A stretch of 64,000 bases of DNA from NCBI GenBank assembly GCA_964577565.1, contig CAZNZL010000002.1, forward strand, positions 88,650 to 152,649, read 5' to 3'. Numbering within the stretch: the first letter of the stretch is position 1; each line of letters begins with the position of its first letter. Shown in pieces: positions 5,743 through 28,252 of the stretch. The DNA is from an uncultured Candidatus Saccharibacteria bacterium. GTDB lineage: Bacteria; Patescibacteriota; Saccharimonadia; Saccharimonadales; JAGQNJ01. A model generated the notes under the pieces. The model ran no database searches. It saw nothing but the letters and a program-made list of their open reading frames with translations, and was not told where the DNA came from. The position numbers and the translations under genes are program-made.

Positions 5743-5975
5743 AGCTGTTGCTACTACCCACATAACTTGTGCACAATCTGCCCGTCTTTACACAGGCAAT
5801 TTTATTTACAACGCACCTGTGGGTAATACCCGGTTCTTTCACACACCCTTACTGCGGTTTTTCCACACCACTTTCCATGTTGTTTGGCGGAAGATTACTG
5901 ATTACAAACCCATTTATACCCATCTTACACACCACTTACTACTAAAACTACAATTATATTAAAGAAAGGATAATA

Positions 5976-7067: not shown

Positions 7068-7081
7068 GTATAGTAGATAGA

Positions 7082-8140
7082 ATGGTGTTTACGTCTGTTC
7101 GGTTACAGAATTATCGGTCGTACCAAGACGGTGCCTTTGAATTTAGCCCAAACGTAAACATAATTGTTGGCCCCAACGCGAGTGGTAAAACCAATTTACT
7201 TGACGCCCTGCATCTAAGTGCTAATGCCACATCAATTAAGCCGTCTCGCGAACGTATGGTGCGTGTGGGTGCTAATTGGGCGCGAGTTGATACATTGACT
7301 AACACCAACCAAACGCGGGCTGTAAAGCTCCGAGAAAACGAAACTGGGCTTATTATTGAGGTTGATGAAAAGTCATACAAGCGCTTACCGCAACGTTTGC
7401 GCCTACCTATTATTTTATTTGAGCCAAGCCAGCTCTATCTCATAACCTCATCGCCTGATATGCGACGAACACTCATTGACGATATGCTCGAAAAGCTTGT
7501 TCCTGCCTTTAGTAAACAAAAAAATAACTACTTAAAAGTCTTGCGGCAGCGTAACGCACTCCTTAAGCAGCCAATCGAACGGGTCAAACAGCAAATTTTT
7601 GCCTGGGATATTCGTTTAAGCGAGTTGGCGGGCCATATTGTTGAGCACCGCCTTACGTTACTAGAGGATATGAACGCCAAAGCCAGCGCTATATACAGCG
7701 ACATTGCCCAGCACGACCACCATATTAACTTTTCGTACGATAGCAAGATTCCGCTTCCGGGCTATGCAACCAATCTTACAAAAGTGCTCCAAACATCACT
7801 AGAAAACGATCATCACCGAGGGTTTACGGGGTATGGGCCTCACCGCGACGATATCACCATTGCAATTGATAACGATGATATACGAGATGTGGCTTCACGA
7901 GGAGAAACCAGAAGCATTCTCTTAACAGTCAAGATTATTGAAGGTACATTGCTTGAAGCGGCGTATGAGCACAAGCCGCTATTACTGCTGGATGATGTCT
8001 TTGGTGAGCTCGATGGCCAACGCCGCAAACGGCTTATTGAATTTATTGGTGGTAACCAGGTTTTTATAACCACCACCGACGCAGACATCATTGGCCACGA
8101 GTTTGCACAGCAAACAAATATAATTTATACCAATAGTTAA
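7082..8140 (+). CDS. recF: DNA replication and repair protein RecF
   Basis: N-terminal Walker A GPNASGKTNLLDAL and C-terminal LLLDDVFGELD (Walker B / ABC signature region). Follows dnaN. Confidence 0.9.
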   Translation: MVFTSVRLQNYRSYQDGAFEFSPNVNIIVGPNASGKTNLLDALHLSANATSIKPSRERMVRVGANWARVDTLTNTNQTRAVKLRENETGLIIEVDEKSYKRLPQRLRLPIILFEPSQLYLITSSPDMRRTLIDDMLEKLVPAFSKQKNNYLKVLRQRNALLKQPIERVKQQIFAWDIRLSELAGHIVEHRLTLLEDMNAKASAIYSDIAQHDHHINFSYDSKIPLPGYATNLTKVLQTSLENDHHRGFTGYGPHRDDITIAIDNDDIRDVASRGETRSILLTVKIIEGTLLEAAYEHKPLLLLDDVFGELDGQRRKRLIEFIGGNQVFITTTDADIIGHEFAQQTNIIYTNS

Positions 8141-9738
8141 TTAATTGAATAAACCACTTTGTATTTTTTTGTATCCAAGCCGCTATTTCGAATTTGTGAT
8201 TCAATTATAGCTTTTTTTTCGGCAATTTCTTTAGGGTCATACGCATAGCTAGCCAGGGATTTGTTAAACACGGTTCTTGTAACATCAGGAACAACCAGTA
8301 TGTTATTTTTATGTATTGAAACAGCTCTCACCTCAGGCGAGTCCATTAAACGTGAAATATGAGTATCGATTCCATCACTGCGGCCACTACTAATAGCCAA
8401 TACACTTGATCTATTATTCTTTTCTATACACAGGAGGGTTTTATCGCTGTTAATCTGTCGGATTCCGCAAAAAGTATAGTCTCGAAATGAGTATCGGTAA
8501 TATCCCGTCATAGTTTCGGGATTGATTGTTAACAAACCAGAATCTGTTACTGCTAAAATCCCCCTGTTGTAAACTTCCATTTGCCTAACATTAGGTATGG
8601 TTCCGGTTTGCTCTAATTCATTCTGATTAATGGTATATAAATATAGCGTTTCATCGCTTAACACGCACAGTTTATTACGGCCACATAGTCGAGCTTGGCT
8701 TGCTGCAAAATCTAATCTATATCGCCGCTCGTTGTTATTCGAATAAATAACTACTTCGCTAAAGTTCAAAGGAGAATCATCTGGAGACGAGCCTTCGTCT
8801 TCTTCCTCGAAGTATTTATTGCTAATCACTGAAGTACTTGGGTTCAAGAAGCTATAACCAAGATATTCGGGGTTGTAATGCTGGTTATTTAGGATGGTAA
8901 TACTGTCATCAGCGGTGCTTATTCCATAGAAATTTATACCAGATAATTTAGTTGGCTGAATATTCAATTGCTGTGGGGGTGTTGAGAGGTTTTGGTAATA
9001 AAGGAACTCATCGCCCAGAGTACCGTAAACAAGGTAGCCGTTTTTATAGGGGGATATACCATATTCTTTATCTGGATCCAACCCTTCAACTTTCTTAAAC
9101 GCGTTCAAAGCGACCGTATGTGTCGAGGTATTGACGGGGTATAGTCCAAATTCTGTACCGTGCTCATCTTTATGGCTAACAAATGCTTTAAGTTGACCAG
9201 AATCTATAACAAACCCTAACAAACTAATCTCATTAGCGTCAACCGCTAACGGTAGGCTATAACCGGGCGAATTATTTGAAGGACCAACATGAAAGTTAGC
9301 GCTACTAATACTACCACCACACTGCCAACTAATTAGGTTATCCCCGTTTTCTGAATAAAGGCATTGGCTGGGTTTATCTCCGATGTATTGTCGTGCCTCT
9401 TCTTGTTGGTGTTTTGAGTTAACATGAGTCGTTTGAAAAAAACCCCGAGCGTTGGCAACAGAGAAATAACTACCATCTCTACCAGAAGTGGTAACTCTGT
9501 ACACGCCTCTCTTAACAAGTTTTCTTACATTGCCCCTAAACGTACCAGCAACTTGTGTATTTTCGTTTTGTATTGTGAAATTTATGTTGTTTGTGCCGGA
9601 AGATGTGTTTATTTGTATAAAAGAGTACTGTGAGGCTGCGAGGATTGCAATTAAGCACATACTCGTTAGTAAGATTAATATTTTATGTCGGTAGATCTTG
9701 TGAATCATTAAACCAATTAGTGAATTTTGTTGCATCAT
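8137..9738 (-). CDS. Secreted or membrane-anchored hypothetical protein (533 aa), last gene of the T4SS-like operon
   Basis: N-terminal hydrophobic signal/anchor (ILILLTSMCLIAILAASQ). A 4-nt overlap with the upstream gene suggests an operon. No recognizable catalytic motif. Confidence 0.5.
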   Translation of the reverse strand: MMQQNSLIGLMIHKIYRHKILILLTSMCLIAILAASQYSFIQINTSSGTNNINFTIQNENTQVAGTFRGNVRKLVKRGVYRVTTSGRDGSYFSVANARGFFQTTHVNSKHQQEEARQYIGDKPSQCLYSENGDNLISWQCGGSISSANFHVGPSNNSPGYSLPLAVDANEISLLGFVIDSGQLKAFVSHKDEHGTEFGLYPVNTSTHTVALNAFKKVEGLDPDKEYGISPYKNGYLVYGTLGDEFLYYQNLSTPPQQLNIQPTKLSGINFYGISTADDSITILNNQHYNPEYLGYSFLNPSTSVISNKYFEEEDEGSSPDDSPLNFSEVVIYSNNNERRYRLDFAASQARLCGRNKLCVLSDETLYLYTINQNELEQTGTIPNVRQMEVYNRGILAVTDSGLLTINPETMTGYYRYSFRDYTFCGIRQINSDKTLLCIEKNNRSSVLAISSGRSDGIDTHISRLMDSPEVRAVSIHKNNILVVPDVTRTVFNKSLASYAYDPKEIAEKKAIIESQIRNSGLDTKKYKVVYSIN

Positions 9739-11660
9739 GCAGGCTCCCAGAATTCCAACTGGAACTCTTTTTTAATATCGACATGAAAGTGATCGGCGTG
9801 TCCAGATATGCACTTAACCTGTCCTTCAAGTCCCTTAGTTCGTGCATAGGACAATATTTGTTGGAGTGAATCATCACCCCGAGGAGGGCACCACCAAATA
9901 TTTCGAAGAACACCCGTGTCTGCAAATAACTTACCTAATGTAATAGTTGCGTTTTTGTCGTATGTTCCCTTCCATGATTTTGTATGACTTGCAACCTGAA
10001 GTTCACCTTCTCCACTTAGATCCACTGCGATCCCAATGTTATGTGATTTATGGCCACTCGCATTTAAATCACCAATTCGGAGCTTGGATTTGCCCTGCAT
10101 CGCATTGTTGAATGCCAGTGCGACACTATAAAGTACACAAACTAGCTGTTGACTTCCGTAGCGCTGACTTTGAGAGGAGTAAATAGTATATTCCCCAGCC
10201 GGAGCATCGGGTAACTTGAAGTACCCCTTACGCTGAGTATGTGGTTCAAGTACGGCTGGGCAGGTTATACCGGGAAGACTGGCTGAAGTATGGCACCCGG
10301 GCGTTCCGGTATTGCTTGGAGCAGAACCACCAAACTCAGCAAGAATAGATGTTGAGAATGGTAAGCGAATACCCATGTGTGGTATACAGGCTGATTCACT
10401 ACTACACGGTGACTCAAATCTTGCTAGAAAAATATACGTTGCCTCTTCAACGGTTGTGGCAGCTCGTAGTGCTGATAACACTCCCGGGCGAACATCTTCT
10501 TCCAGCTCTTTTTTTAAAAACTCTAGTTGTAACTCGAGTGAGTTAACGGGTTGGCGCCTTTCCCTTGCAAAATTTAATAAATTTGTTTGGCGGCCACCGA
10601 GCCATTGTGCCAGCCCCCAAGCTCTACCATGCGGGTATTCAGATGTAGTTCCCGGGTATGCTGCTATTGGGTTAAAGCCAGATTCAGACTGTAGGTTACC
10701 CATTATTCCGGCAGCCTGCGGTGCAGTAAAGCCCATTGTGCCCACCAAGAAATTCCATACCTTTTCTCGGTTGTCGTTTCCGGGCAGTAAACTAGCTGAA
10801 CCTCCCGGCGCACAACTACAGTTGCCTCCTGTGGTAGCACTTGAATTTTGATTCACTGCTGAAGCACTTCCCAGAGCAACTGAATTAACTACAAGGTCGG
10901 TTAAACTGGCAATGCCTTCCTGTGTAGGATGCAAGCCATCTCGAAGATTGCCGTTTGGATCATTCGTTGGACTTACGGTTGGATCACCTCCCGGAGAGAC
11001 TAATTTAAACCAATCTATAATTGAATATCTACTTGAGCTGGACAAATCACCTAACCGTTGATTAAATTCCCCTAAATAAGCTAAGTTATTAGGCCATGCT
11101 GCGGTTCCTACAGTATTAACCCACCAGACTTCAATTGTTGGGTTTTTTTGACGAATAGCGGCGATAACTTGTTCTATCGGATTATTATTGAGGCCTCCAT
11201 TCGAACCCAGTGCAACAACTATTCCCTGTGCATTTTGAATTTTTGAAGCGTCTGCATCGACTGCTTCTCTGGCTGGCGCGAGACTGCCTTCTGCCGTAGG
11301 AGCTCCAATGCCTCCACCGGTCCAAGACCTTCCAGCTGCTGCATTAATGGTGGCAGTCATCCCTTTTTCAGAAAACTTACGTTTATACTCGGCTTCAGCA
11401 GCAACGGTAATTGAATCCCCCAACACGTAGACATTAGTAATGGCTTGCGCTGAAGATTGCGGACCGCAAGAATCTGCATAATCAAAGAATCGGCTGCCAC
11501 CGTCAATTATCGATTTTTGTTCTGGTGAAAGAGCCACAACAGTTTGAAGCGTAGATGCCAAGACAAAAATAAATGCTGCACAAAATGATCCTAAATGTAG
11601 TCTGCTAACAGTTGAGCTAAACATTGCTAATATTTTATATAATCGTTTCTTACGTGACAT
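9735..11660 (-). CDS. Multi-domain secreted peptidoglycan hydrolase (SGNH/GDSL-like + phage-tail-lysozyme-like + M15 zinc peptidase-like)
   Basis: Signal/anchor at the N-terminus. VYVLGDSITV fits an SGNH block I. GIMGNLQSESGFNP...GLAQW resembles the phage tail lysozyme family. C-terminal SGHKSHNIGIAVDL...GHADHFHVDIK resembles the H-x6-D...H zinc site of VanY/M15 peptidases. Confidence 0.6.
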   Translation of the reverse strand: MSRKKRLYKILAMFSSTVSRLHLGSFCAAFIFVLASTLQTVVALSPEQKSIIDGGSRFFDYADSCGPQSSAQAITNVYVLGDSITVAAEAEYKRKFSEKGMTATINAAAGRSWTGGGIGAPTAEGSLAPAREAVDADASKIQNAQGIVVALGSNGGLNNNPIEQVIAAIRQKNPTIEVWWVNTVGTAAWPNNLAYLGEFNQRLGDLSSSSRYSIIDWFKLVSPGGDPTVSPTNDPNGNLRDGLHPTQEGIASLTDLVVNSVALGSASAVNQNSSATTGGNCSCAPGGSASLLPGNDNREKVWNFLVGTMGFTAPQAAGIMGNLQSESGFNPIAAYPGTTSEYPHGRAWGLAQWLGGRQTNLLNFARERRQPVNSLELQLEFLKKELEEDVRPGVLSALRAATTVEEATYIFLARFESPCSSESACIPHMGIRLPFSTSILAEFGGSAPSNTGTPGCHTSASLPGITCPAVLEPHTQRKGYFKLPDAPAGEYTIYSSQSQRYGSQQLVCVLYSVALAFNNAMQGKSKLRIGDLNASGHKSHNIGIAVDLSGEGELQVASHTKSWKGTYDKNATITLGKLFADTGVLRNIWWCPPRGDDSLQQILSYARTKGLEGQVKCISGHADHFHVDIKKEFQLEFWEPA

Positions 11661-11662
11661 AC

Positions 11663-14452
11663 TTATTTTCTCACCTCTGTCATTACAGCATTAAAGTAGG
11701 CGTCATCAATATCGATCTTGCTTCCGCCGCACTTATTATATGCCTTGTGTGGGTGAATGCCGGATATATTACCGCACACTATGCTGTCTGAAGAAATAGC
11801 CTCAGTGCTTATATTATATTTTTGAACAAGATACTTCACGAGTTGCACTACGGCATCGAACTTTTTTCTATTAGTTGTTGGTCCGGTGGCTCCAAAATCT
11901 TCTGGCAGACCTTCAATTTCAATACCAAATGTCGTTGAGTTGGCCCCGGATGCATGGTTAACCTTATCGTCTTCGTTTGGGGTTAGCTGGTAAATATTGC
12001 CGTCGGCAGTAATGCCAAATTGAACTCCCAAGTTTCTCTCGCGCAGCGTCTCGGCCAAGCTATCAATGCCTTTACCATTAGAGCGTCCACCCCACCAATG
12101 CAAGGTAATACCTTGTGGTGTTATTTTTTCACCCGTTGTCGGCAGCGATGGTTGATATTTTTGAATCGAAGCATTTGAAGTGGTGGTTTGAGCGGGCGAA
12201 CCCTCTATGCCTATTTCGGCGCAAGCTTCTTCGTCAATACCTTCATAGCACGCCATTGCGGTGATGGCGGCTTTGTCGGCTAAATAGAACCGATAAGCCG
12301 TTAAGTCTGAATTGTTTCTGTCGGTGCACTTTTCTTTGTTATCTTCAAGCTTGATATAGCTCGGCGCTTGCGTGTATGTTAGCACCCCCGTGTCGGGGTC
12401 TATGGTAGCACCAAAACATGCCTCACCATAATCGCGGTTCATTCGTTCAAGTAGTTCGGGGTTGTTTTCGAACCGTTCGGCATTTTCGTAAGGGTTTTCG
12501 GCGCCGTTATCGAGCTCATCAAGCGTATAACCAAACTTATCTACCCCATAATCAAATGGCTCTGTGGTTGCGGCTGACACACCTGGAATAACTGACCCAA
12601 GGCTTTTTACTAAACTTGAAAAGGCTTTCAGGGGTGCCTTTGCAAACGATGCGAGGGTACGCTGGGTGTCTATAAACTCTGGATTTTTAATAATCGCGCT
12701 AGCTATCAGCGAGTTGGGTTCGTACGGGTCTACTATGCGGGCATACCAAGATTTATGCTTCATTTCTCGTTTTTCTTGCAGTTGCTGTTCACGCAGTAAC
12801 GCTCTGCGGTCACCGTCGCTTAATGCGGTGCAACCAAAGACTTGGCACTCGTTGTTTGCTGCCATAAATGCCCCCGAGTCACCCACGCTGCCAAGTGTGG
12901 CCCCTACTAAACCTGCTGCGTCCAATGCATCACCGGCCAACCATCGAACCACATCATCCATTACAGCTCCAAGAGCAACGTTTTGAGCCGCCTCAGAGCC
13001 AACAGAAACCAATAAGGATATAGGGCCAGATACTGAAAGTGCAATTCCCCCCACCGCCAATGCAATACCCCCAAGCGTAGAGTTTACTATTCCGCACAGA
13101 TGTGACACGCCCGGTGCATCTGTGATGGTGTCAATTGTTCTAAAAAAAGCTGGTTTTTCTTTGCCGGGTTTGGCAGATTCCGGAATTTTTTGCCCGGTAT
13201 TTTCGTTACCGAGCCCGTGCTGAATGCTTTCAGCATCAAAAACCGATGTTTTAGATTTTTCGTCATATAAATCTTCATATATGGCGCCAACCTCATCCAT
13301 GTTAACATCGTTACCAGATTGAATCTGAGAAGCCACAGAAATAATATCCATCGCTGTTCTTATAGAGGGTAGTTCAATATTTGATGCCTGTAATTCATGT
13401 GAAGCATCCCCTAATGCATCTAATCCACACAGCAGTCCTACTACTGCCGTGGCTCCTACACCCTTACCAAGGGCACCCCTCACTCTGCTAACTTTTTGTT
13501 CTGTGGTTAGGTTGGGGTCTCGCGCTGTGCGTTGAATTTCTTCGTTTCCTGCGTCAACTTCAGCTGCTTTAGCCCTGTCTTCATCTGAGGCTGGGTTTTC
13601 AGGGTCATCTTCTCGTGAGTTTGCTACCCTCGTTTCTGGGGTTGAACCATCTTGAATCTTTTTGGCGCGCTCGTCCTTTCGTTTTTTGATATACTCTCTC
13701 AAATCCTCATCAGCTGCTTTAGCAATATTTTTAAGTGGGTGGAAATCAACCCCACCACGAATTTTTAAGGTGCGACTTGCAATCGAAGTGCTTACGCCAT
13801 TGATATCGAGCGCATGAGTCATGGCTGAAATAGCGCCCCGGCGAGTTCGGGCCGATTCAGCACTTAAATCAAGGGTTGTAACGGTGCTGCCGTTCGGGGG
13901 GTCTGGAATATCAAAGCCGGAGGCTCGCATTTTTTCTAACGACTTCTTGCCTTCTGGGGTCGATATGTCAATGTCAATACCGCGAATTCGTGCAAAGCCG
14001 TCATGTCGTGCTGTCATACCACGTGCTGCGAGCTTTTTGTCGTAGTGATTGCCAAGTTTATTGCCTAAATAACTTAAGTTTCGACGGTGTGGTTCGTTTC
14101 GAGTGCGAGCCCACTTTATAAGTTTGCCAGTTCGAGTGTCGGAAAGTTCCTCGATATCACTAAAGTGTTTTTGGAACAAGCTGGCAATTTGTATGATCAT
14201 TGCCGGCCCTGACAAGAAGGAAGAAATCATCAAACTAATACCAATAATGATTCCTGCCGTACCGCTACCAATAAGAGCTTGCTTCTTTCTAAACTTAAAA
14301 CGGAGCTTGTCTTTTTTTGACAAGTTAGTATCCCACGGGCTGTTGCTTGAATCGCTAGAAGGATTATTACTCTCAAGAGCTGCCGCCTCTTTTTGTTCGG
14401 CTGATGTTGGAGTCGGTGTGGCTTTTTTGTCTTCTTTGTCGTAAACGGGCAC
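11663..14452 (-). CDS. Large membrane-anchored protein (929 aa) with a C-terminal N-acetylmuramoyl-L-alanine amidase (Amidase_2/PGRP)-like domain
   Basis: N-terminal TM segment (ALIGSGTAGIIIGISLMISSFLSGPAMIIQIASLF) followed by a long variable region. The C-terminus ITLHWWGG...HASGANSTTFGIEIEG...GIHPHKAYNKCGG resembles amidase_2. Confidence 0.5.
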   Translation of the reverse strand: MPVYDKEDKKATPTPTSAEQKEAAALESNNPSSDSSNSPWDTNLSKKDKLRFKFRKKQALIGSGTAGIIIGISLMISSFLSGPAMIIQIASLFQKHFSDIEELSDTRTGKLIKWARTRNEPHRRNLSYLGNKLGNHYDKKLAARGMTARHDGFARIRGIDIDISTPEGKKSLEKMRASGFDIPDPPNGSTVTTLDLSAESARTRRGAISAMTHALDINGVSTSIASRTLKIRGGVDFHPLKNIAKAADEDLREYIKKRKDERAKKIQDGSTPETRVANSREDDPENPASDEDRAKAAEVDAGNEEIQRTARDPNLTTEQKVSRVRGALGKGVGATAVVGLLCGLDALGDASHELQASNIELPSIRTAMDIISVASQIQSGNDVNMDEVGAIYEDLYDEKSKTSVFDAESIQHGLGNENTGQKIPESAKPGKEKPAFFRTIDTITDAPGVSHLCGIVNSTLGGIALAVGGIALSVSGPISLLVSVGSEAAQNVALGAVMDDVVRWLAGDALDAAGLVGATLGSVGDSGAFMAANNECQVFGCTALSDGDRRALLREQQLQEKREMKHKSWYARIVDPYEPNSLIASAIIKNPEFIDTQRTLASFAKAPLKAFSSLVKSLGSVIPGVSAATTEPFDYGVDKFGYTLDELDNGAENPYENAERFENNPELLERMNRDYGEACFGATIDPDTGVLTYTQAPSYIKLEDNKEKCTDRNNSDLTAYRFYLADKAAITAMACYEGIDEEACAEIGIEGSPAQTTTSNASIQKYQPSLPTTGEKITPQGITLHWWGGRSNGKGIDSLAETLRERNLGVQFGITADGNIYQLTPNEDDKVNHASGANSTTFGIEIEGLPEDFGATGPTTNRKKFDAVVQLVKYLVQKYNISTEAISSDSIVCGNISGIHPHKAYNKCGGSKIDIDDAYFNAVMTEVRK

Positions 14453-14472
14453 GGTCTAGGCTGCTCCTTAAT

Positions 14473-16422: not shown

Positions 16423-17294
16423 TACAGCAGCTCCTTGTCCAGGTTGGGTTGGGGGGCTTCACCCTGGCCTTTGGTAATAACAGGAGCGGTCAAATCATCA
16501 AAATTCTTAAGCTGTTGCCTGGAGGAGGTGTCGGGGTTATAAGAGTCGTAATAGAGCTCGATTAACTCTTGCGTATCAAGCGGTACGCCGTGCACGCCGC
16601 ACTGCAGCAAACTGGCCAAAACGTTTTGCACACGGTTTCGTAGCTCGGTTTTGGCAGCTTCAAGGTCTTGTTCATTAACAACCACATGCTGCTCTTGTTT
16701 ACTAAATAGGCTGGTAAGGCCAGAAAAGAAGTTTTTACTTTGCGTAATAGCTTTCTGAACATCTGCCTTTGGAAAGAACGGTATCACCATATAGAATCGT
16801 TTATCCATAATATTCGTTTGCATTGACAAGTTGGTTATAAAGCCAAGGTAATCTTCCATGAGCATAGCTAGCAGCATATTATCGTGTTCGCTACGAATTT
16901 TATCGAGCCGTTCTATATACGGCCGAATATCAACACGCTCTGAACGCACAAAAATCTGTACCGGAAAGTACAGCGAGTTCAAAAAGCTTTGATAACCAGC
17001 TTCAACTGCTTCACGCTCTTGGGGGCTCATAAGGTCAAAGTTAATAGATTTTAGCATAATAACTGAGCGAAATGACCCGTCATTCATAATGACCACACCG
17101 TCTCTAATTTCGGCAAACTGTAAGGTATTTTGGGTGCTATTAGGGTTAGAGGGCGGAGCTTGCGGGAATGGTTGTTGACCAACAGCTTGGCCAGCCGGCG
17201 GTTGACTTCCCGACGGATAGCTTTGTTGTGGCGGAATAGGCTGGTTTTGGGCCGCCTGATTTGGTGTGTAGGGTTGATTTTGATCCGGATTCAT
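16422..17294 (-). CDS. P/Q-rich protein, possibly the detached N-terminal domain of VirB4
   Basis: Its stop overlaps the virB4 start (TAATG). A low-complexity P/Q-rich N-terminus is followed by a conserved-looking globular part (VIMNDGSFRSVIMLKSINFDLMSPQEREAVEAGYQSFLNSLYFPVQIFVRS). Confidence 0.4.
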   Translation of the reverse strand: MNPDQNQPYTPNQAAQNQPIPPQQSYPSGSQPPAGQAVGQQPFPQAPPSNPNSTQNTLQFAEIRDGVVIMNDGSFRSVIMLKSINFDLMSPQEREAVEAGYQSFLNSLYFPVQIFVRSERVDIRPYIERLDKIRSEHDNMLLAMLMEDYLGFITNLSMQTNIMDKRFYMVIPFFPKADVQKAITQSKNFFSGLTSLFSKQEQHVVVNEQDLEAAKTELRNRVQNVLASLLQCGVHGVPLDTQELIELYYDSYNPDTSSRQQLKNFDDLTAPVITKGQGEAPQPNLDKELL

Positions 17295-17328
17295 TAAGTA
17301 TGTTGCCCACCATGACCTTACCGTTCGT

Positions 17329-18285
17329 TTAGTGTAGGCTTATAACCACTTCGTCGTCAGCGCCCTGGTCTTTTATACGCTTGGCCTGACCGGCGATAGT
17401 TTGAACAGAAAGATCATCACTGTTTTTGACAATATTTAGTATAGCAGGGTCGCGAGGAGGTGTCACGGCCTGAGTACTCTGTTTTGCTTCCTTTTGCACG
17501 GGGTTGCTTCCAGGCGGATTGATGGTTTTCATATTGCTGTATTCATTGTGCTGGCGAGGCTCGGCACCCGAGGCTTGATCATCAGCTATAACTGGCGGTA
17601 GGGTGGGTCTTGCGGCTTGTGCTTTTTGTTGTTCTTCTTTGGACTTCTCGATACTGCGCTTAACCGCATCCTTATATTTAACCGAGGCCTTACCAATTAA
17701 GTCGTCCATAGACTTAGCCCGTGGGTTAGCGGCGGGGTCTAGCATATCGGCTGCTGGTTCTGCTGCTACAACAGACCCGCTGAGAGCCGCTATATCTACA
17801 AGCCTATCAGAGCTGCTGGTTTGAGCACCAGGGTACATGTTTGTTGCGTTTTTTATGGCCCACCCACGAGTATCAAGCGTCGTGGCCAGGGTTTTAAGAC
17901 GGCTTTTAACCTCGTCTTGAGAATAGCCTTTGGTCAGCTGCTTTTCTTGCTTTTTGGGAGCGGTAATTGTGACCAACTGCTTAATACCGGTCTGGTCCCA
18001 TATGCGTCGGCGCGGCTTTAAAAAGAAGCGTATTTTTGCCAGTAGCCAGATTTCAGTTGACTGGGCACCGCCTAGCGGAGCCGATAGCAAGCCAAAAAAC
18101 AACGCCGGTGGCACAAATATGAAGCCTATTGGCCAAAAAGAGGTTAAAAATAATCTAACCGCCAAAAAGCCGCTTACAATGGTTATAACTGCGTATATAA
18201 ACTGGCGTAAACTCAGCCAGCCAATGAGCTTATCTTCTGCTTCAATATCTTGGATTACTTTATACTGCGCCATAAGTTTGTGCAT
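17329..18285 (-). CDS. Membrane protein with two N-terminal TM helices, T4SS-associated (VirB3-like topology?)
   Basis: Two N-terminal TM helices (FIYAVITIVSGFLAVRLFLTSFWPIGFIFVPPALFFGLL) followed by a hydrophilic domain. Located between the VirB6-like and VirB4 genes. Confidence 0.4.
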   Translation of the reverse strand: MHKLMAQYKVIQDIEAEDKLIGWLSLRQFIYAVITIVSGFLAVRLFLTSFWPIGFIFVPPALFFGLLSAPLGGAQSTEIWLLAKIRFFLKPRRRIWDQTGIKQLVTITAPKKQEKQLTKGYSQDEVKSRLKTLATTLDTRGWAIKNATNMYPGAQTSSSDRLVDIAALSGSVVAAEPAADMLDPAANPRAKSMDDLIGKASVKYKDAVKRSIEKSKEEQQKAQAARPTLPPVIADDQASGAEPRQHNEYSNMKTINPPGSNPVQKEAKQSTQAVTPPRDPAILNIVKNSDDLSVQTIAGQAKRIKDQGADDEVVISLH

Positions 18286-20081
18286 TACGCTCCATCAGGT
18301 GGCTGAACAGTTTCACCCGCAGCATTTGGTCCAATAATACTTGGGTTGTCGCGAGCACTCGCATATTCGCGTACACGATTATGGAAATCGGGGTGTTCTT
18401 GAGGGTTGATTCGTGCCTCGTCTAGAAGTTGGCGAACATTTAATTCCACAGATTGGGTAATGGTATTGCCAGCAGCGTCTTTAGCAGGTTCGCCGTCAGC
18501 GCCTCTTACGGGTACTGTCCTGGTTTCACCAGTACTCATTGCAAATACATTATTTGCGAACTCCTCAGCCTTTTTAGGTGAAACACTAGATAACATACTA
18601 TGTAAGTTTCCTACATCCGCCAATGCCTTATCAATAGCTCTCTGGTCTCCAGTCTCTAACGCATCGCTTAGTAATTTTTGAGACTGCGCAGCAAAAGTTT
18701 CAACAGTCCTCTGGTGGCTACCAAGTACTTCCCGCGGATCTGCCCCAGCAAACGCTCCCTCTATCTGGTCGCCAGCAGAAATTTTCTTTTGAACGAAATC
18801 AACAGTTGAACCGTATGAATTGGAGCTAAACTCTGCACGACCCTTGTTCGCCTTCATCCATCCAGCTGCATCATAGGCTGTAATCAAGCCGGCGTTAACC
18901 ATTTGGTTAAGCTCTTCTTGCATTTGTGCTAAGCCTTCCTCCCCAGCTTCATAGGCGGTATTGGTATGGGCAACCCGGAACTTCTGTGCTGCAACGGCCA
19001 TACCTGTTGTGCCAACTCGTGCCCCTACGGCAGATTCTGCTCTAGCAAGCGCCATTTCTGCCTCTTGTTGGGTGTGCCCCATTGCTTGATATTGTCTGAC
19101 GAATTCTCTTCTGGTCATTGAGGTATCACGTAATAGTTTCGACGCGTCATCGTCGTTAAAGGCACGTGCCCCACCCTTCTCTAATTTTTCAGCAGCGGCA
19201 CGTTCCAAAACCGCTTGTTCTTGATCTTTCCACCTGTTTCTTCCCCTACTAGACAAGCTCCAACTTCCATTTGCGCCCAAAGAGGCGGCCCTTCTATAAA
19301 GACTACCCGTTCGGCCGCTACCAAGGCGTGTACTCGCGTTCATTCTGTTTTCATGAAGTTGCTTGGCTCGTTCTTGGCGCGCATTGCGCAAGCGGTCAAA
19401 CATACCACGGCTGCGGTTGTTGGCAATACCGGCAATGTTCGCAAAAGCGCTACCTGCAACCTGGAAGGTCTTAGGTATCAAAAAGTATGGCCCATAGAAA
19501 GCTAGTAATATAATCCCTACCTTAAATGCACCATTGCCATAGACATCTGGGGATGCAGCAATTCTAGCGGCAACCCGGCCACCTGCGACAATAAGCAATA
19601 TTAAAGGATACATGAGCAGTACTTTGCTGAAGCTCTCCCACCAAATCTTCCATAGCTTGTCAGTACCGGGTAATATCCAAGCTACTAACGCAAGAGGAGC
19701 ACTTACAACCAATACAACAATTAATATTTGGCGTATAGCTAGCACAAAAAACGCAATGGCTAAGGCCAGCAAGATAGAAGCACCAAGCAGGAGTAAACCC
19801 ACCCCGCCCCCGAGCGCAAACGCCGTACCACCAACAACAGCCGTACCACCTACTAGACCCGTAAGAGTAAGACCTACCGGTCCAACTGCTTCTTGTAGAA
19901 TCTTAGTTATTTCTAGCTCGTCACGACCACCAAACGGTGCGTACAGTAAACCCTCCAAGCCCCAAGCTACATTGCTTACCACAACTATTAAAAGCGTGAA
20001 AAGCGGCCATGATAGCTGAATAAGAATAACGGCGATTAACAGGCGCGGTAATACTTTTTTAACCGTATAGGCATCAAACAT
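18285..20081 (-). CDS. Polytopic membrane protein, VirB6/TrbL-like
   Basis: At least five TM helices in the N-terminal half, then a long hydrophilic C-terminal extension. This is the topology and operon position typical of VirB6/TrbL. Confidence 0.55.
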   Translation of the reverse strand: MFDAYTVKKVLPRLLIAVILIQLSWPLFTLLIVVVSNVAWGLEGLLYAPFGGRDELEITKILQEAVGPVGLTLTGLVGGTAVVGGTAFALGGGVGLLLLGASILLALAIAFFVLAIRQILIVVLVVSAPLALVAWILPGTDKLWKIWWESFSKVLLMYPLILLIVAGGRVAARIAASPDVYGNGAFKVGIILLAFYGPYFLIPKTFQVAGSAFANIAGIANNRSRGMFDRLRNARQERAKQLHENRMNASTRLGSGRTGSLYRRAASLGANGSWSLSSRGRNRWKDQEQAVLERAAAEKLEKGGARAFNDDDASKLLRDTSMTRREFVRQYQAMGHTQQEAEMALARAESAVGARVGTTGMAVAAQKFRVAHTNTAYEAGEEGLAQMQEELNQMVNAGLITAYDAAGWMKANKGRAEFSSNSYGSTVDFVQKKISAGDQIEGAFAGADPREVLGSHQRTVETFAAQSQKLLSDALETGDQRAIDKALADVGNLHSMLSSVSPKKAEEFANNVFAMSTGETRTVPVRGADGEPAKDAAGNTITQSVELNVRQLLDEARINPQEHPDFHNRVREYASARDNPSIIGPNAAGETVQPPDGA

Positions 20082-21128
20082 CTACAGTCCGCCCCCTATC
20101 GCCTGAGAAATAACCATAACAAGCCCTATTATAATAAGTGCAAATGTTGCAACTATCCTAAAGTAAGACCAAATGGCTCGCAGCTCAGAGCTATCGTACA
20201 GATTCTGACCATCTACATTAAGCAACGAATCAGCTATATCAAAGAGACTCGTTATACCATCAGACACGAGCTCTAAAATACCACAGACAATCCAGCCGGC
20301 GCTAAGACCCATTCTTTCGGTACATGACTGAGCTTGTTCTGAAGTGCTTTCATCGGCTCTAATGTCATACTTACCCCTGGGAGCTTCAATAACTATGTTA
20401 AGAATTTCTGAAGATTTTTTTATGGCAGGTATACATTTATCAGCTACAACCGAACAAAGCTGATACGTGCCGGGATTTATATTGTCAAAGTTAGCGGTGT
20501 AGGCGACGCCGTCAGGGGTTGTTCGGCGGTTGGCCTGCTTGCGTGCGACTTCTGCACCACTTGAATTTTTTAAAGTTAATGTATCAGATGCCGGGGCCTT
20601 TGAGGCATCGATTGCATCCAGTCCCGAGTCTGTTAAATCCGCCCCCTCCCAGTCTATGAGACTAGTTGCTCTTATGATCTTTGTCTCCGGATTGTCGACA
20701 TTACTATTTGATCTATTTAGTGTAACGGGCGCATTCGAGAACTCTGAAATTACATTTTGTGGACAGGCAGGTACTTGAGAACTTGTGCCATTTCCAATAG
20801 AGTTTAAGGTTCTGGGTTGAGTTAATGTTACCCCTGCAGTATTTCCATTAGGGGGCACGAATATGCTAATAAACATCCCACACCTTGAATTGCCGTTAAC
20901 GAGACCTTGCACCAGTGCACCCTCGCCAGCATAAATACCAGCATTGCTGCTCTTTAGGTTGCCAAAAGTATCCCCCCCTATTGTAAGCCTGATAGTACTA
21001 GAGTCTACGAACGTTGCTGACATGTTTGGGGCAGCATGAATTGAACCACGTAATATGAGTGGGGATAAAAAATTAAACAGTAGTAAAGCCACCGAAGTAA
21101 GGAGGGAGGTTGTTTTTTTTATTTTCAT
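20082..21128 (-). CDS. Secreted protein with a C-terminal membrane anchor (348 aa), first gene of the minus-strand T4SS-like operon
   Basis: N-terminal signal peptide (TSLLTSVALLLFNFLSPLILRGSIHA) and a C-terminal TM helix (VATFALIIIGLVMVISQAIGG). Confidence 0.4.
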   Translation of the reverse strand: MKIKKTTSLLTSVALLLFNFLSPLILRGSIHAAPNMSATFVDSSTIRLTIGGDTFGNLKSSNAGIYAGEGALVQGLVNGNSRCGMFISIFVPPNGNTAGVTLTQPRTLNSIGNGTSSQVPACPQNVISEFSNAPVTLNRSNSNVDNPETKIIRATSLIDWEGADLTDSGLDAIDASKAPASDTLTLKNSSGAEVARKQANRRTTPDGVAYTANFDNINPGTYQLCSVVADKCIPAIKKSSEILNIVIEAPRGKYDIRADESTSEQAQSCTERMGLSAGWIVCGILELVSDGITSLFDIADSLLNVDGQNLYDSSELRAIWSYFRIVATFALIIIGLVMVISQAIGGGL

Positions 21129-21251
21129 TATTGCCCACGCTGATTATCAAAAAAAAGCTTAAGTCGCACAAACATAGCATACCATAAATACGATGTAAAT
21201 AGTCCCTACTTTTATAATCTATCCTGGCAATGATAGAATACTTATTAATGT

Positions 21252-21713
21252 ATGCAGCCCGTAGCCCACAACAGTAATTCTCCAAACAACGCAAAAAAAA
21301 TCATCATTATAATGATGATTTTGGGCTTGCTCATCGCAAGTCTAACAATATTTTTTATTCAGCAAACCAATAAAAGCAAAACAGTTCCATCAGAGCACGT
21401 TCCAGCGCTTGAGTACATTAATCAGTTTAACTCATTTATGGTAAATGACCCAGATAAAGCGTATGAAGAGATCGAGGGTCGTTTCCGGCCAGAGCGACAG
21501 TTATTCAATGCAAGCGCCAGCTTTTTTAGGAGTGATATAGAAATTAACAAATGTAAGTACAAGGACGCAAAGGATTATTTTGATCAAGTCACTGAGGTAA
21601 CCATCTCCTGTCCGTTAAGAAACAACCAGCCCAGTGTAGCCATTGAATATCAAGTTAGTAAGTCAACAGACAATAGTTTATCTATATTAAGTTATGAATT
21701 CGCTGCAGACTAA
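21252..21713 (+). CDS. Small membrane-anchored hypothetical protein
   Basis: N-terminal TM segment (IIIIMMILGLLIASLTIFFI). First gene of the plus-strand set, divergent from the T4SS operon. Confidence 0.4.
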   Translation: MQPVAHNSNSPNNAKKIIIIMMILGLLIASLTIFFIQQTNKSKTVPSEHVPALEYINQFNSFMVNDPDKAYEEIEGRFRPERQLFNASASFFRSDIEINKCKYKDAKDYFDQVTEVTISCPLRNNQPSVAIEYQVSKSTDNSLSILSYEFAAD

Positions 21714-21801
21714 GCGGCAACCAAGCTTTAAATAAGTAAACATTGTCTGTGGTTGAAAAAAATGGTATTCTAAATCAGAAATTAGCGTAAATCCAAAAAT
21801 T

Positions 21802-22281
21802 GTGAAAAGTCTAACAAAAAAACTAGCCTCGGCAAAAAAAATGTTATTCGTAGCCACTCTACTTATTACTTTTAGCTTTTTAGTGATTTGGAGTAGCGAT
21901 ACGACCGGAGCCCAAAGCAACAACATACCCTCCGGCGGTAACGTGAATTCTCAAAACCCCGACCCAGGCCTGCCGATAAATACAGATAGATCAGCTATCG
22001 TTGATTGTAATGGAGATACCGCAAGCGGGGCCAAGAGGTGTCTAGAGAAAAACCCATTAGTGCAGCGCACCTTACAAGGTATTAACTTTTTGTCGGCTGG
22101 TGCGGGTGTTGTTATTACGGCATCTATAGTCATAGCGGGCATTCAATATGCCGCAGCTGGCCCGAACCCACAACAGGTTGCTGCAGCCAGAAAACGTATT
22201 ATTAGCTCGATTGTTGCCTTGCTTGCGCTGCTTTTCTTATACGCATTTTTGCAATGGCTCGTGCCCGGAGGAGTGATCTAA
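21802..22281 (+). CDS. VirB2/TrbC-like T4SS pilin paralog 1
   Basis: N-terminal signal/anchor, a Cys pair (VDCNGDTASGAKRCLEKN), and a C-terminal double hydrophobic helix (GINFLSAGAGVVITASIVIAGIQYAAAG...IISSIVALLALLFLYAF). Confidence 0.55.
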   Translation: MKSLTKKLASAKKMLFVATLLITFSFLVIWSSDTTGAQSNNIPSGGNVNSQNPDPGLPINTDRSAIVDCNGDTASGAKRCLEKNPLVQRTLQGINFLSAGAGVVITASIVIAGIQYAAAGPNPQQVAAARKRIISSIVALLALLFLYAFLQWLVPGGVI

Positions 22282-22670
22282 TGCTATACACACTTATTTC
22301 TTTCTTTGCCGCTGCTGGTGACGGCTGTCTGCCTGCTAATTCGGCGAAAAGCTTTTTTGGTCTGCCCCCCTGGTTTAAATATTTAAAGGGCGAGGAAGAT
22401 CAGTTTGGTAGGTGTGTCCCGGTTTTTGGTTGGGACAATCTAGAGTCGTTATGGTCCATTGCGCTGGTAGCGATAGAAATTTTACTCCGTATCGGTGCCT
22501 TGGTGGCGCTGGGGTATATAATATTTGCTGGATTTCAATATATTACTAGTAGTGGCGAACCCGATAAAACCAAGAATGCCAAAACTACCATAATCAACGC
22601 TTTGGTTGGGCTCGTGATTGCTATTTTATCTAGTTATATTGTGTCATTTATCGGGAGTCAAATAACGTAA
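22281..22670 (+). CDS. VirB2/TrbC-like T4SS pilin paralog 2
   Basis: Shares the C-terminal block ...AGFQYITSSGEPDKTKNAKTTIINALVGLVIAIL with paralogs 3-6. Start placed at the ATG with RBS GGAGGAG (22281); the ORF track extends it to 22254. Confidence 0.6.
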   Translation: MLYTLISFFAAAGDGCLPANSAKSFFGLPPWFKYLKGEEDQFGRCVPVFGWDNLESLWSIALVAIEILLRIGALVALGYIIFAGFQYITSSGEPDKTKNAKTTIINALVGLVIAILSSYIVSFIGSQIT

Positions 22671-22675
22671 TAGTT

Positions 22676-22972
22676 ATGAAAAACATTGTATTTTTACTTG
22701 CGCAGCAAATTGTTGACCCGAGCTTGGTAAATATTCCTAAACCGGATGCCAGTGACGGGCAAGTTCAGACCGTTATTAGGCTTGTCATGATGATAGCTGC
22801 TGCGGTAGCGGTACTTATGGTGGTGATTGGTGGTCTGATGTATGTAACTTCAAATGGCGAACCTCAAAGAGCAGCCCGGGCTAAGGACACAATTTTATAC
22901 GCCATCATTGGCCTGGTTGTGGCTATAATGTCAAACGTAATTGTGATGTTTGTACTAGGGAGAGCTGTCTAA
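22676..22972 (+). CDS. VirB2/TrbC-like T4SS pilin paralog 3
   Basis: C-terminal block VIGGLMYVTSNGEPQRAARAKDTILYAIIGLVVAIMSNVIV. Confidence 0.6.
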   Translation: MKNIVFLLAQQIVDPSLVNIPKPDASDGQVQTVIRLVMMIAAAVAVLMVVIGGLMYVTSNGEPQRAARAKDTILYAIIGLVVAIMSNVIVMFVLGRAV

Positions 22973-23356
22973 ATGAAACGGTTGCTCATAAAGCTGTCGT
23001 TAATAGCAACTGTCTGCGCTTCTTTGGTAGCGGTCCCGCTGGTTCATGCAGACGATCCGCTTGAGGCGGTTTGTAAAGGACCCCAAGCTTCTTCGTCTGC
23101 ATGCGTAAGCCGCACCAATCAAAACCCTGTGTTGGGGCCAGACGGAGTTCTCACCAAAGTCATTAAGATTCTGGTTATTGTTACCGCTGCGGCATCGGTA
23201 ATTATGATGATGGTCGGTGGTTTTCGCTACGCTATTTCAGCCGGCGACCCTTCAAATATCAATGCAGCAAAAAACACCATATTGTATGCGATTGTAGGCC
23301 TCATTATTGCAATAATTGCACAGTCTATCGTTTCATTTGTTATTAGTCGGCTTTAG
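22973..23356 (+). CDS. VirB2/TrbC-like T4SS pilin paralog 4
   Basis: Signal peptide, a Cys pair (AVCKGPQASSSACVSRT), and the C-terminal block MVGGFRYAISAGDPSNINAAKNTILYAIVGLIIAIIAQSIV. Confidence 0.65.
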   Translation: MKRLLIKLSLIATVCASLVAVPLVHADDPLEAVCKGPQASSSACVSRTNQNPVLGPDGVLTKVIKILVIVTAAASVIMMMVGGFRYAISAGDPSNINAAKNTILYAIVGLIIAIIAQSIVSFVISRL

Positions 23357-23383
23357 TTTTATAATAATACGAGAGGAACCAAA

Positions 23384-23767
23384 ATGATAAAAAAATTGAC
23401 ACTTCTAACCACAACAATGATTTCTTTGTTTGCTTTTTTATTTGCACCTATGGTCGTTCAAACCGCGTACGCAGCCGACAACAAGGAAGCCGCGTGCGAG
23501 GGGCTAGAGCTAACCGGTAGAGGTTGTGATGGTACTGCCGATGCTACCATTAATAACGTTATCAAGGTGGTAATTGACATATTCTCAGTCGTTGTGGGCG
23601 TAACTGCGGTGATTATGATTATGGTCGGTGGCTTTAAGTACATTGTGTCATCAGGTGATTCAAGCAATGTTAACAGTGCAAAAAATACGATTCTTTATGC
23701 ACTGGTTGGCTTAGTTATCGTAGTGCTTGCTCAGGTAATTGTACGGTTTGTATTGGGCCGCCTTTAG
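23384..23767 (+). CDS. VirB2/TrbC-like T4SS pilin paralog 5
   Basis: Signal peptide, a Cys pair (AACEGLELTGRGCDG), and the C-terminal block MVGGFKYIVSSGDSSNVNSAKNTILYALVGLVIVVLAQVIV. Confidence 0.65.
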   Translation: MIKKLTLLTTTMISLFAFLFAPMVVQTAYAADNKEAACEGLELTGRGCDGTADATINNVIKVVIDIFSVVVGVTAVIMIMVGGFKYIVSSGDSSNVNSAKNTILYALVGLVIVVLAQVIVRFVLGRL

Positions 23768-23842
23768 GTAAATAAACTTGAAAAACGCTACCGTCTTGTA
23801 GTACAGTGAAGGCAAATAGAATATGAAAGGAATCTCTCTATA

Positions 23843-24259
23843 ATGAAACGACTTAAAGAATACATTTTGTCACTTGCAGTAAGCGGATTATTGTTTGTGC
23901 CAGTTTTTGCATTTGCTGGTGTAGCGTCTGCTCAGACACCTAGTATTGAGGGTGGATTGCAGCGCGGTACATGCTTAAGTACGACAGCCACCGACTGTGA
24001 TACCCAAGATCCCGACGATTCTATAAACAACATCATAACCACAGTTATTAATATATTCTCGCTTGTTGTGGGTGTCGTATCCGTCATTATGATTATTGTC
24101 GGCGGGTTGAAGTACATAACATCTGGTGGTGACTCTGGTAACGTGAGTGGTGCCAAAAATACCATTCTGTACGCCATTGTTGGTCTTGTCATTGTAGCCT
24201 TAGCGCAAGTAATTGTACGCTTTGTCCTCGGCCGTGTTACTGAACCATCCGGCGTGTAA
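23843..24259 (+). CDS. VirB2/TrbC-like T4SS pilin paralog 6
   Basis: Signal peptide, a Cys pair (GTCLSTTATDCDTQD), and the C-terminal block IVGGLKYITSGGDSGNVSGAKNTILYAIVGLVIVALAQVIV. Confidence 0.65.
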   Translation: MKRLKEYILSLAVSGLLFVPVFAFAGVASAQTPSIEGGLQRGTCLSTTATDCDTQDPDDSINNIITTVINIFSLVVGVVSVIMIIVGGLKYITSGGDSGNVSGAKNTILYAIVGLVIVALAQVIVRFVLGRVTEPSGV

Positions 24260-24274
24260 TAGTTCTTACCGAAA

Positions 24275-24306
24275 TAAAAAAGCCCCCTCGACGAAGGGGC
24301 TTTTTA
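24275..24306. terminator. Bidirectional intrinsic terminator
   Basis: AAAAAA-GCCCCT-cgacga-AGGGGC-TTTTT lies between convergent genes (pilin paralog 6 on plus, hsp20 on minus). Confidence 0.75.
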
Positions 24307-26406: not shown

Positions 26407-26420
26407 CTTGTGATTACGCT

Positions 26421-26511
26421 GGCGGAGGGGGTGGGATTCGAACCCACGAGACCCGTTAGGGCCTGCTGGTTTTCAAGACCAGTGCACTAGGCCGGACTAT
26501 GCGACCCCTCC
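26421..26511 (-). tRNA. tRNA-Ser (anticodon TGA), class II with long variable arm
   Basis: Reverse complement folds as GGAGGGG...CTGGT-CTTGAAA-ACCAG...long variable arm...GGTTCGAATCC...CCCCTCCGCCA. The CCA end appears to be encoded. Confidence 0.85.
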
Positions 26512-28250: not shown

Positions 28251-28252
28251 CC

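Follow-up and report, generated by a model that had tools for sequence, protein, structure and literature searches.

A conserved type IV secretion locus beside dnaA-dnaN-recF in an uncultured Saccharibacteria bacterium, with six VirB2-like pilins and variable wall-hydrolase domains

Background

A region for a type IV secretion system (T4SS), encoding VirB4, VirB6, VirB2 and a GntX/ComF-like protein, together with four to six small secreted proteins, is conserved across Saccharibacteria (McLean 2020). In Southlakia epibionticum, transposon sequencing (Tn-seq) showed that nearly all of the genes SEML1_0006-0019, including those for pilins and hydrolases, are essential for epibiotic growth (Wang 2023, PMC10633639). 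Here we describe a T4SS locus of this kind in an uncultured Candidatus Saccharibacteria bacterium (assembly GCA_964577565.1, contig CAZNZL010000002.1, positions 88,650 to 152,649). The whole 64-kb stretch is called the window below, and all positions refer to it.

The S. epibionticum locus is laid out in the tables of Wang 2023 (PMC10633639). After dnaA, dnaN and recF come, on the minus strand, two small exported proteins, a PF18013 hydrolase, a 1113-amino-acid (aa) protein with a C-terminal DD-peptidase fold, VirB4, an open reading frame (ORF) the size of TrsD, PrgI, two long VirB6-like/T4SS proteins and an NTF2-like protein, and then, on the plus strand, six PF18895 pilins followed by Hsp20 and a ComFC-sized gene. 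Its composition was described there as Gram-positive-like, with no recognizable coupling protein or relaxase in the cluster; according to the literature, strain ML1 carries a non-essential type IV coupling protein (T4CP) gene distant from virB4. A phylum-wide survey (Quinonero-Coronel 2025, PMC12102498) reported an MPF-FATA-related VirB4 clade accompanied by TrsD, PrgI, VirB6 and VirB2 arrays of 2-11 genes, with relaxases nearly absent, most T4CP homologues lying far from virB4, and dnaA, dnaN and rnpA often nearby. A 2025 review considers Patescibacteria-type T4SSs unique among monoderms and speculates that the T4SS and a pilus serve as a conduit for signals or uptake.

Results

Gene content and order of the locus

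We found the same gene order, on the same strands and directly after dnaA-dnaN-recF, as in S. epibionticum ML1. Both loci encode a PF18013 hydrolase, a large protein with a C-terminal wall-peptidase part, VirB4, a TrsD-like ORF, PrgI and VirB6-like protein, followed by six divergent PF18895 pilins with hsp20 and a ComFC-sized gene after them, and neither cluster holds a T4CP or a relaxase. Eight minus-strand ORFs run from 21128 down to 8137, abutting or overlapping, with junctions ranging from a 4-nt overlap to a 34-nt gap. Divergent from them are seven plus-strand genes spanning 21252-24259, six of which are pilin genes. A reading made earlier from the sequence alone (the sequence-only reading) had placed the eight genes beside recF at identical coordinates, and had named a VirB4 ATPase, two very large cell-wall hydrolases and a seven-gene divergent set with six pilins; the family and structure matches given below bear out each of these. 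The minus-strand genes, in the order in which they would be transcribed, are as follows.

20082-21128, minus strand: 348-aa protein that starts with a signal peptide, continues with a variable ectodomain and has a transmembrane (TM) segment at its C-terminus; likely N-terminal part of a VirB6-like protein by homologue alignment
18285-20081, minus strand: VirB6/TrbL-like polytopic protein, 598 aa, called from a precomputed PF19590.5 match and fold matches
17329-18285, minus strand: PrgI/VirB3-like protein, 318 aa (PF12666)
16422-17294, minus strand: TrsD-like protein, 290 aa, the VirB4 N-terminal domain as an ORF of its own (NF045971 and NF041427 matches)
14473-16422, minus strand: VirB4 ATPase, 649 aa, central and C-terminal domains (NF045971, PF19044, PF12846)
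11663-14452, minus strand: scaffold-and-amidase protein, 929 aa (PF01510)
9735-11660, minus strand: three-domain peptidoglycan hydrolase, 641 aa (Pfam and motifs)
8137-9738, minus strand: last operon gene, 533 aa, with an N-terminal membrane anchor (20-38) and a large extracytoplasmic part (TM prediction)

Set against the ML1 genes, the 641-aa hydrolase corresponds to SEML1_0006 (PF18013, essential), the 929-aa protein occupies the position of SEML1_0007, and the PrgI-like protein corresponds to SEML1_0010. The two loci differ in four places. ML1 has two long VirB6-like/T4SS proteins, of 998 and 1088 aa, whose genes are separated by an NTF2-like gene, whereas the window has a single VirB6-like unit that is split into 348 + 598 aa. 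The ML1 hydrolases combine two lysozyme-like domains with a cysteine peptidase in one protein and carry a DD-peptidase in the other, compared with an esterase, a lysozyme and a LAS peptidase in one and an amidase in the other here. The ML1 operon ends in two small Ig/prealbumin-like proteins and that of the window in one 533-aa protein. Unlike ML1, the window also has an extra 153-aa gene ahead of the pilins. The locus likewise agrees with the Patescibacteria T4SS clade of the survey (PMC12102498) in its MPF-FATA-related VirB4, separate TrsD, PrgI-type VirB3, probable VirB6 and VirB2 array, in having no relaxase, and in lying near dnaA, dnaN and rnpA. Pilin identity within the array of the window is 20-57%, a range whose upper end lies slightly above the 54% maximum in that survey; otherwise we saw no essential difference.

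Conservation across Saccharibacteria

VirB4 had at least 550 relatives among species-representative genomes, and its best 80 relatives were 80-95% identical and almost all labelled Saccharibacteria or Saccharimonadales, in agreement with a Saccharimonadales origin of the window. We compared 46 loci of at least 19 kb from different species, and nearly all of them share one order and orientation: comFC, hsp20, pilins 6 to 1, VirB6, PrgI, TrsD, VirB4, the large protein, the hydrolase, the variable small protein or proteins, recF, dnaN, dnaA and rnpA. Because the locus and its flanks are syntenic across species, it is to be read as core and vertically inherited, not as an island or mobile element. 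The sequence-only reading had likewise taken it for a chromosomal locus set among housekeeping genes, and the synteny next to dnaA-dnaN-recF is conserved in relatives. VirB4 was more identical than DnaA in 43 of 43 paired genomes (median 84% versus 71%), with a mean gap of 14 points that is somewhat inflated by the ranking of loci on VirB4 similarity. VirB4 was also more conserved than DnaN and RecF in every pair, and TrsD (70% identity) was about as conserved as DnaA. By these comparisons, very strong constraint on the VirB4 ATPase is indicated.

These data bear on whether the locus could belong to an ordinary integrative and conjugative element (ICE) with its relaxase, T4CP and integrase encoded a little way beyond the cluster. 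The idea was raised by a serine recombinase gene at 30472-32136, about 6 kb past the pilin array, which sits by a tRNA-Arg gene and a low-GC stretch. We rejected it on synteny, since the locus and its dnaA-dnaN-recF and hsp20-comFC flanks stay together across dozens of species, and mobile-element boundaries and a patchy distribution were not found. The conservation of VirB4 beyond that of DnaA speaks against it as well, as does the GC content of the locus (0.39-0.48), which overlaps that of the rest of the window (0.38-0.48). The recombinase is further separated from the locus by the conserved hsp20 and comFC, by other genes and by tRNAs. Finally, among the scanned ORFs of the 64-kb window (which take in all those of at least 250 aa), we detected no relaxase, T4CP/VirD4 or VirB11 domain, in line with the sequence-only reading, although three of these ORFs (33392-34561, 389 aa; 42337-43173, 278 aa; 50388-51494, 368 aa) matched no family and are not positively excluded. 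We therefore give an ICE almost no weight.

VirB4, TrsD-like, PrgI and VirB6 components

VirB4 scored 372.8 bits against the NCBIfam model NF045971 (CD1110 family; cut-off 325) and matched the Pfam TraG P-loop (PF19044) and AAA_10 (PF12846) families. It also matched the structure of a Firmicute VirB4 (PDB 4AG5, E = 9e-47) and TrwK (E = 3e-6), and its translation contains the Walker A motif AKSGAGKS and the Walker B motif IMIVDE. The TrsD-like ORF matched NF045971 at positions 2-102 (E = 9e-7) and the TrsD model NF041427 (E = 4e-6), both below cut-off, and had no match in PDB. The stop codon of this ORF shares 1 nt with the start codon of virB4, and a separate TrsD-like ORF lies just upstream of virB4 in 78 of 80 loci, at about 70% identity; such an arrangement is also described in the literature. 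On this evidence VirB4 is encoded in two pieces, a TrsD-like N-domain ORF and an ATPase ORF. The PrgI-like protein scored 32.4 bits against PF12666 (gathering score 27) and has two adjacent TM helices (25-63) followed by a long hydrophilic tail in TM prediction. The sequence-only reading spoke of small TM proteins, a description that does not fit the 290-aa ORF, which is the TrsD-like VirB4 N-domain instead of a generic membrane protein.

In the 598-aa protein, residues 1-210 contain at least five TM helices, and the C-terminal domain, about 390 aa long, is helical and hydrophilic; this is the layout of an "extended VirB6". The protein had no match in our NCBIfam scan or, even at E = 10, in our Pfam scan, with the PF19590 model apparently absent from the Pfam-A copy scanned. 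Pfam searches with its N-terminal domain alone and with 25 homologues gave nothing except two sub-threshold TrbL matches, and sequence and profile searches of PDB gave noise only, including influenza HA2 at E about 0.1. On the thresholds of our scans, then, the VirB6 call of the sequence-only reading formally failed. We nevertheless accept this call as probable because a precomputed PF19590.5 (TrbL_3) match is listed publicly for this very protein and for the majority of 120 homologues, and because of fold matches. An AlphaFold model built with 51 sequences had a mean pLDDT of 85.6, and the top four Foldseek matches to it in PDB were R388 TrwJ/VirB5-TrwI/VirB6 stalk chains (probability at most 0.92, E about 1). 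The protein is thus probably VirB6-like, short of proof.

The stop codon of the 348-aa ORF abuts the start codon of the 598-aa ORF. In related loci, the C-terminal 90 or so residues of the 348-aa protein align right before the VirB6 domain inside single proteins of 780-1280 aa, a fused form that makes up 36 of 56 homologous ORFs. The alignment identifies the 348-aa protein as the likely N-terminal part of a VirB6-like protein that is split in this lineage. The split is not an error, because the closest relatives (L002-L004) share it. Some homologues carry a tail-fibre chaperone domain (PF13884) in their VirB6 N-terminal extension.

The pilin operon

The plus-strand operon, its genes numbered by position, consists of one small membrane protein gene and six pilin genes.

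21252-21713, plus strand: small type II membrane protein at the head of the operon, 153 aa, one TM helix (17-35), two conserved Cys
21802-22281, plus strand: pilin 1, VirB2-like, 159 aa, with a long N-terminal extension (PF18895, 27.2 bits)
22254-22670, plus strand: pilin 2, 138 aa from the ATG at 22254, or 129 aa from the ATG at 22281 as in the public gene call (PF18895, 39.5 bits)
22676-22972, plus strand: pilin 3, the shortest at 98 aa, no obvious signal peptide (PF18895, 49.6 bits)
22973-23356, plus strand: pilin 4, 127 aa, signal peptide and two hydrophobic helices (PF18895, 36.5 bits)
23384-23767, plus strand: pilin 5, 127 aa, 57% identical to pilin 6 (PF18895, 49.3 bits)
23843-24259, plus strand: pilin 6, 138 aa (PF18895, 51.0 bits; TrbC, 27.8 bits)

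All six pilins exceed the gathering score of 26.6 for PF18895 (T4SS_pilin), with a range of 27.2-51.0 bits. Five of the six also have sub-threshold TrbC/VirB2 matches, and each shows the VirB2 layout of a hairpin of two hydrophobic helices. The N-terminal extension of pilin 1 varies in length among species. These same matches and the hairpin tell against a Ptl-like toxin exporter, in which the six small proteins would be toxin subunits, as in the analogy to Bordetella ptx/ptl drawn by McLean 2020. Such an exporter would account for an array of four to six small proteins with Sec signals flanked by T4SS genes, yet the similarity to pertussis toxin S1 reported in that work amounts to 11%, and we consider the proposal highly improbable.

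Six-gene arrays accounted for 28 of 45 complete related arrays. In all 28, the best match of pilins 1, 2 and 3 was the paralogue at the same position. Mean same-position identity between genomes was 43% at position 1, 47% at position 2, 42% at position 3, 38% at position 4, 46% at position 5 and 61% at position 6, the last measured between species on the C-terminal 75 residues. Off-diagonal identity for positions 1-3 was 25-36%. For pilin 4, whose positional orthology is ambiguous, the 38% on the diagonal compares with 38-40% off it; within a genome, positions 5 and 6 share 60% identity. Judged by these identities, pilins 1-3 are old, distinct positional orthologues, pilin 6 is the most conserved paralogue and a candidate major pilin, and pilins 4 and 5 seem to be derived from pilin 6.

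Bartonella and Anaplasma also have several tandem, divergent VirB2 genes in T4SSs used for host interaction, and their copies are thought to provide antigenic or host-range variation. In the window, by comparison, positions 1-3 are stable orthologues and position 6 is strongly conserved, a pattern that agrees better with fixed, distinct structural roles than with antigenic variation in pure form. As the only cause of the six pilins, such variation is disfavoured by the stability of positions 1-3 across species.

The 153-aa protein has an ectodomain of about 110 aa that holds the two conserved Cys. It had no Pfam match, a word-indexed search returned no homologue, and we found only seven relatives among 1.84 billion representative proteins. 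One of these (P0142) matches ORFs at the same position in five loci, and about 10 of 49 loci carry such an ORF. A profile built with the positional analogues matched only TM helices in PDB. We conclude that the gene represents a real but rare family.

Wall hydrolases and the last operon gene

The 929-aa protein ends in an Amidase_2 domain (N-acetylmuramoyl-L-alanine amidase; PF01510, E = 1.7e-13). The roughly 750 residues before it form a conserved, mostly helical scaffold with a TM helix at 59-77 and a glycine-rich hydrophobic stretch at about 450-520. An AlphaFold model of the protein was poor (mean pLDDT 54), and a Foldseek search with that model gave noise only. The 641-aa hydrolase matched PF13472 (34.2 bits, cut-off 32.9), PF18013 (Phage_lysozyme2, E = 5e-29) and, below threshold, the M74-like LAS peptidase family PF03411 (E = 3e-4). 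Motifs read from its translation agree with these assignments: GDS and DGLHP of an SGNH/GDSL esterase, and SHNIGIAVD and HADHFH of a LAS-type metallopeptidase. It also has an N-terminal anchor or signal. Jointly, the two hydrolases hold four domains: esterase, lysozyme-like, LAS-peptidase-like and amidase.

The last operon gene overlaps the upstream hydrolase gene by 4 nt. Its 533-aa product had no Pfam or NCBIfam match; homologues at 21-40% identity occupy the same position in nine related loci, and elsewhere this position is filled by one to three unrelated ORFs of about 150-500 aa. Across loci, the module begins with a protein of roughly 780-1700 aa, usually 850-1300, which is followed by a hydrolase of roughly 400-1100 aa and by one to three smaller products. 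Across 30 species, 16 catalytic families are represented in the two proteins that follow virB4. Homologues of the 929-aa protein keep the N-terminal 750 or so residues and end in an Amidase_2, VanY, GDSL, M74 or beta-lactamase-type domain. By these domain assignments, the hydrolase module is one of constant layout, with variable catalytic heads on a conserved scaffold.

The exchange of C-terminal domains on a constant N-terminal part is also what a protein-effector exporter would predict, with the two large proteins after virB4 not as VirB1 analogues with a housekeeping role but as secreted substrates in which a conserved N-terminal scaffold or targeting region carries interchangeable wall-degrading "warheads" onto or into the host. 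Some of the 16 catalytic families, including GH3, tyrosine phosphatase and Exo_endo_phos, are atypical of VirB1, and protein export was suggested as an alternative by Wang 2023 (PMC10633639). However, both proteins have N-terminal anchors or signal peptides, so that export by Sec would be enough; a T4CP, the kind of protein that recruits the substrates in most effector systems, is absent; and multidomain hydrolases are also found in conjugative Gram-positive T4SSs (literature). We view the exporter as unlikely; it is compatible with our best explanation and not exclusive of it.

Relation to other type IV secretion systems

With the Gram-positive MPF-FATA systems (CTn2 of the CD1110 type, pCF10 Prg/Pcf, pGO1 Trs), the locus shares the core order VirB6 (probable here)-VirB3 (PrgI)-VirB4-wall hydrolase, a VirB4 that passes the CD1110-family model, and a TrsD as in pGO1. 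It differs from them in having no T4CP, relaxase or surface adhesin, in its VirB2-like array, which Gram-positive systems lack, and in being chromosomal, core and origin-proximal. Gene content thus supports a Gram-positive-type (MPF-FATA-related), minimal T4SS that has neither a relaxase nor a coupling protein within the cluster or close to it. The closest plasmid VirB4, at 40% identity, comes from Embleya, a member of the Actinomycetota (NZ_CP108778.1, 274386-285538; locus L082), where the order is large membrane protein, PrgI, VirB4, T4CP, replication-relaxation protein and NlpC/P60 hydrolase. The locus in the window looks like this arrangement minus the two DNA-processing genes and plus the pilin operon. 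Plasmid-borne VirB4 relatives reach 37-40% identity in Actinomycetota and about 30-37% in Bacillota, a difference suggestive of Actinomycetota, the phylum of the known Saccharibacteria hosts, as the source of the system. With the Gram-negative VirB/Trw systems (Agrobacterium VirB, R388 Trw), the locus shares VirB2-type pilins, a VirB6 fold match to TrwI and a VirB4 ATPase-domain match to TrwK; it differs in lacking VirB5, VirB7, VirB9, VirB10, VirB11 and VirD4 and in belonging to a monoderm envelope.

Flanking genes and regulatory sequences

The genes and signals around and between the two operons are listed here.

4369-8140, plus strand: dnaA (4369-5742), dnaN and recF (7082-8140), by Pfam
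21129-21251: 123-bp divergent intergenic spacer with weak promoter-like matches on both strands
24284-24299: GC-rich hairpin with T runs on either side, between the pilin operon and the convergent hsp20, terminator-like on both strands
24328-24825, minus strand: hsp20, by Pfam
24958-25623, plus strand: ComFC/GntX-like phosphoribosyltransferase gene, by Pfam

On the dnaA side, rnpA, yidC and jag/khpB (minus strand) precede dnaA, and the last operon ORF (8137-9738) and recF are convergent with a 4-nt overlap. The promoter-like matches in the divergent spacer score 9/12 with an extended TG and lie at 21211-21239 (plus strand) and 21199-21171 (minus strand); a promoter scan of this spacer gave 14 sites against 9.6 +/- 3.4 expected from shuffling, which is no excess. 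The hairpin at 24284-24299 looks like a bidirectional terminator for the pilin operon and hsp20.

Hsp20 (about 77% identity across species) and the ComFC/GntX-like gene are fixed neighbours of the pilin array. Of the related loci, 38 contained hsp20 and 24 contained comFC; flank length limits both counts.

The ComFC/GntX-like gene, a conserved neighbour 700 bp past the pilin array, is one reason to consider a ComB-like machine, in which a T4SS without relaxase or T4CP imports DNA or nucleotides. The Helicobacter ComB system is not known to have either, and the absence of relaxase and T4CP from the locus would agree with such a machine. The genetics of S. epibionticum run counter to it: competence there depends on type IV pili and ComEC, and comEC deletion is viable, whereas the T4SS is essential. 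It follows that essentiality is not due to DNA uptake. In the Tn-seq table of Wang 2023 (PMC10633639), Hsp20 is essential and SEML1_0021, at the ComFC position, is non-essential. DNA uptake is accordingly very improbable in our estimate.

Just three TTTTCCACA boxes occur in the 64-kb window, at 4226, 4321 and 5859, all of them intergenic and flanking dnaA. The cumulative G-C skew has its minimum at about 33 kb and not at dnaA (4.4 kb), where the DnaA-box-like TTTTCCACA sites are confined. An origin at dnaA would make the transcription of the 13-kb T4SS operon head-on to replication, and one at the skew minimum would make it co-directional; 64 kb of sequence does not suffice to choose between them.

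Further along, the large serine recombinase (554 aa; Resolvase domain, PHROG integrase) has tRNA-Arg(gcg) at 30547-30623 inside the 3' end of its gene, on the opposite strand. Between 30472 and 36000, to the right of the recombinase, GC content is 0.38-0.40 and the ORFs are mostly without a family, save for a DUF4238 protein; this region may be an integrated island and is unrelated to the T4SS. A tandemly triplicated gene module lies at 35691-37852, with 118-nt segments spaced 557 and 559 nt apart and 80% and 60% identical to the first copy, and a 29-nt element, GTTTGAACTTCGTGTACTACCGTGTACCA, occurs three times between its copies. An HNH-endonuclease ORF (26497-27027) and two ORFs without a family lie interspersed among three tRNA-Ser genes (tga, gct, cga) at 26420-28951.

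Discussion

That the locus is a chromosomal, vertically inherited Saccharibacteria T4SS is close to certain. A mechanism combining a pilus with a host interface is, taken by itself, somewhat favoured, and our overall best explanation, identity and mechanism together, is likely. Under this mechanism, Sec/YidC would insert the pilins into the membrane, and a VirB3-VirB4-VirB6 platform would extract and polymerize them into a pilus-like filament or channel. The hydrolases, as VirB1 analogues, would open the cell's own wall and probably that of the host too. The apparatus would be part of a contact and exchange interface with the host bacterium and would not conjugate.

Several points weigh against this explanation. 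No pilus has been seen, and Gram-positive T4SSs normally do without one. No VirB8-like or VirB5-like component was identified at the locus. A T4CP could lie elsewhere in the genome, as the literature has many distant T4CP homologues in Patescibacteria. The hydrolases may act on the cell's own wall alone. The match to SEML1_0006-0019, moreover, is one of gene order, sizes and domain annotations in the tables of the paper, not of sequence alignment.

We also considered a wall-piercing device for feeding or attachment in place of the usual secretion channel. Its filament would have a fixed composition, with three ancient specialized pilins, the conserved pilin 6 as the major one, and variants of this major pilin that are specific to lineages. 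Its base would be VirB6, with the variable N-terminal ectodomain as a host-recognition fibre, and its hydrolases would pair a conserved scaffold with interchangeable catalytic heads that suit the wall chemistry of the host. Taken jointly, these parts make a tentative and rather doubtful proposal; if it is true, the hydrolase module would set the host range.

With regard to the best explanation of a Saccharibacteria T4SS at the host interface, the view that the sequence-only reading had reached, of a non-conjugative T4SS through which an epibiotic bacterium with a small genome probably interacts with its host, is supported and matches the published S. epibionticum system. That interpretation was right, and it was already the published one (McLean 2020, Wang 2023, Quinonero-Coronel 2025). 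What we add is small: the VirB6 split, the pilin classes, the swappable hydrolase heads and the rare 153-aa gene.

Conclusions

The window provides one more environmental example of a system that has been catalogued across thousands of genomes and genetically tested in culture. The Saccharibacteria T4SS is the first reported to be essential for its carrier. It may be a monoderm T4SS that forms a pilus, and it probably has a part in the exploitation of hosts by these ultra-small epibionts. Its invariant parts are VirB4, TrsD, pilin 6 and the gene order; plasticity is seen in the catalytic heads of the hydrolases, in the ectodomain of VirB6, in the final gene of the operon and in the small gene that precedes the pilins. 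This division points to where host specificity may reside.

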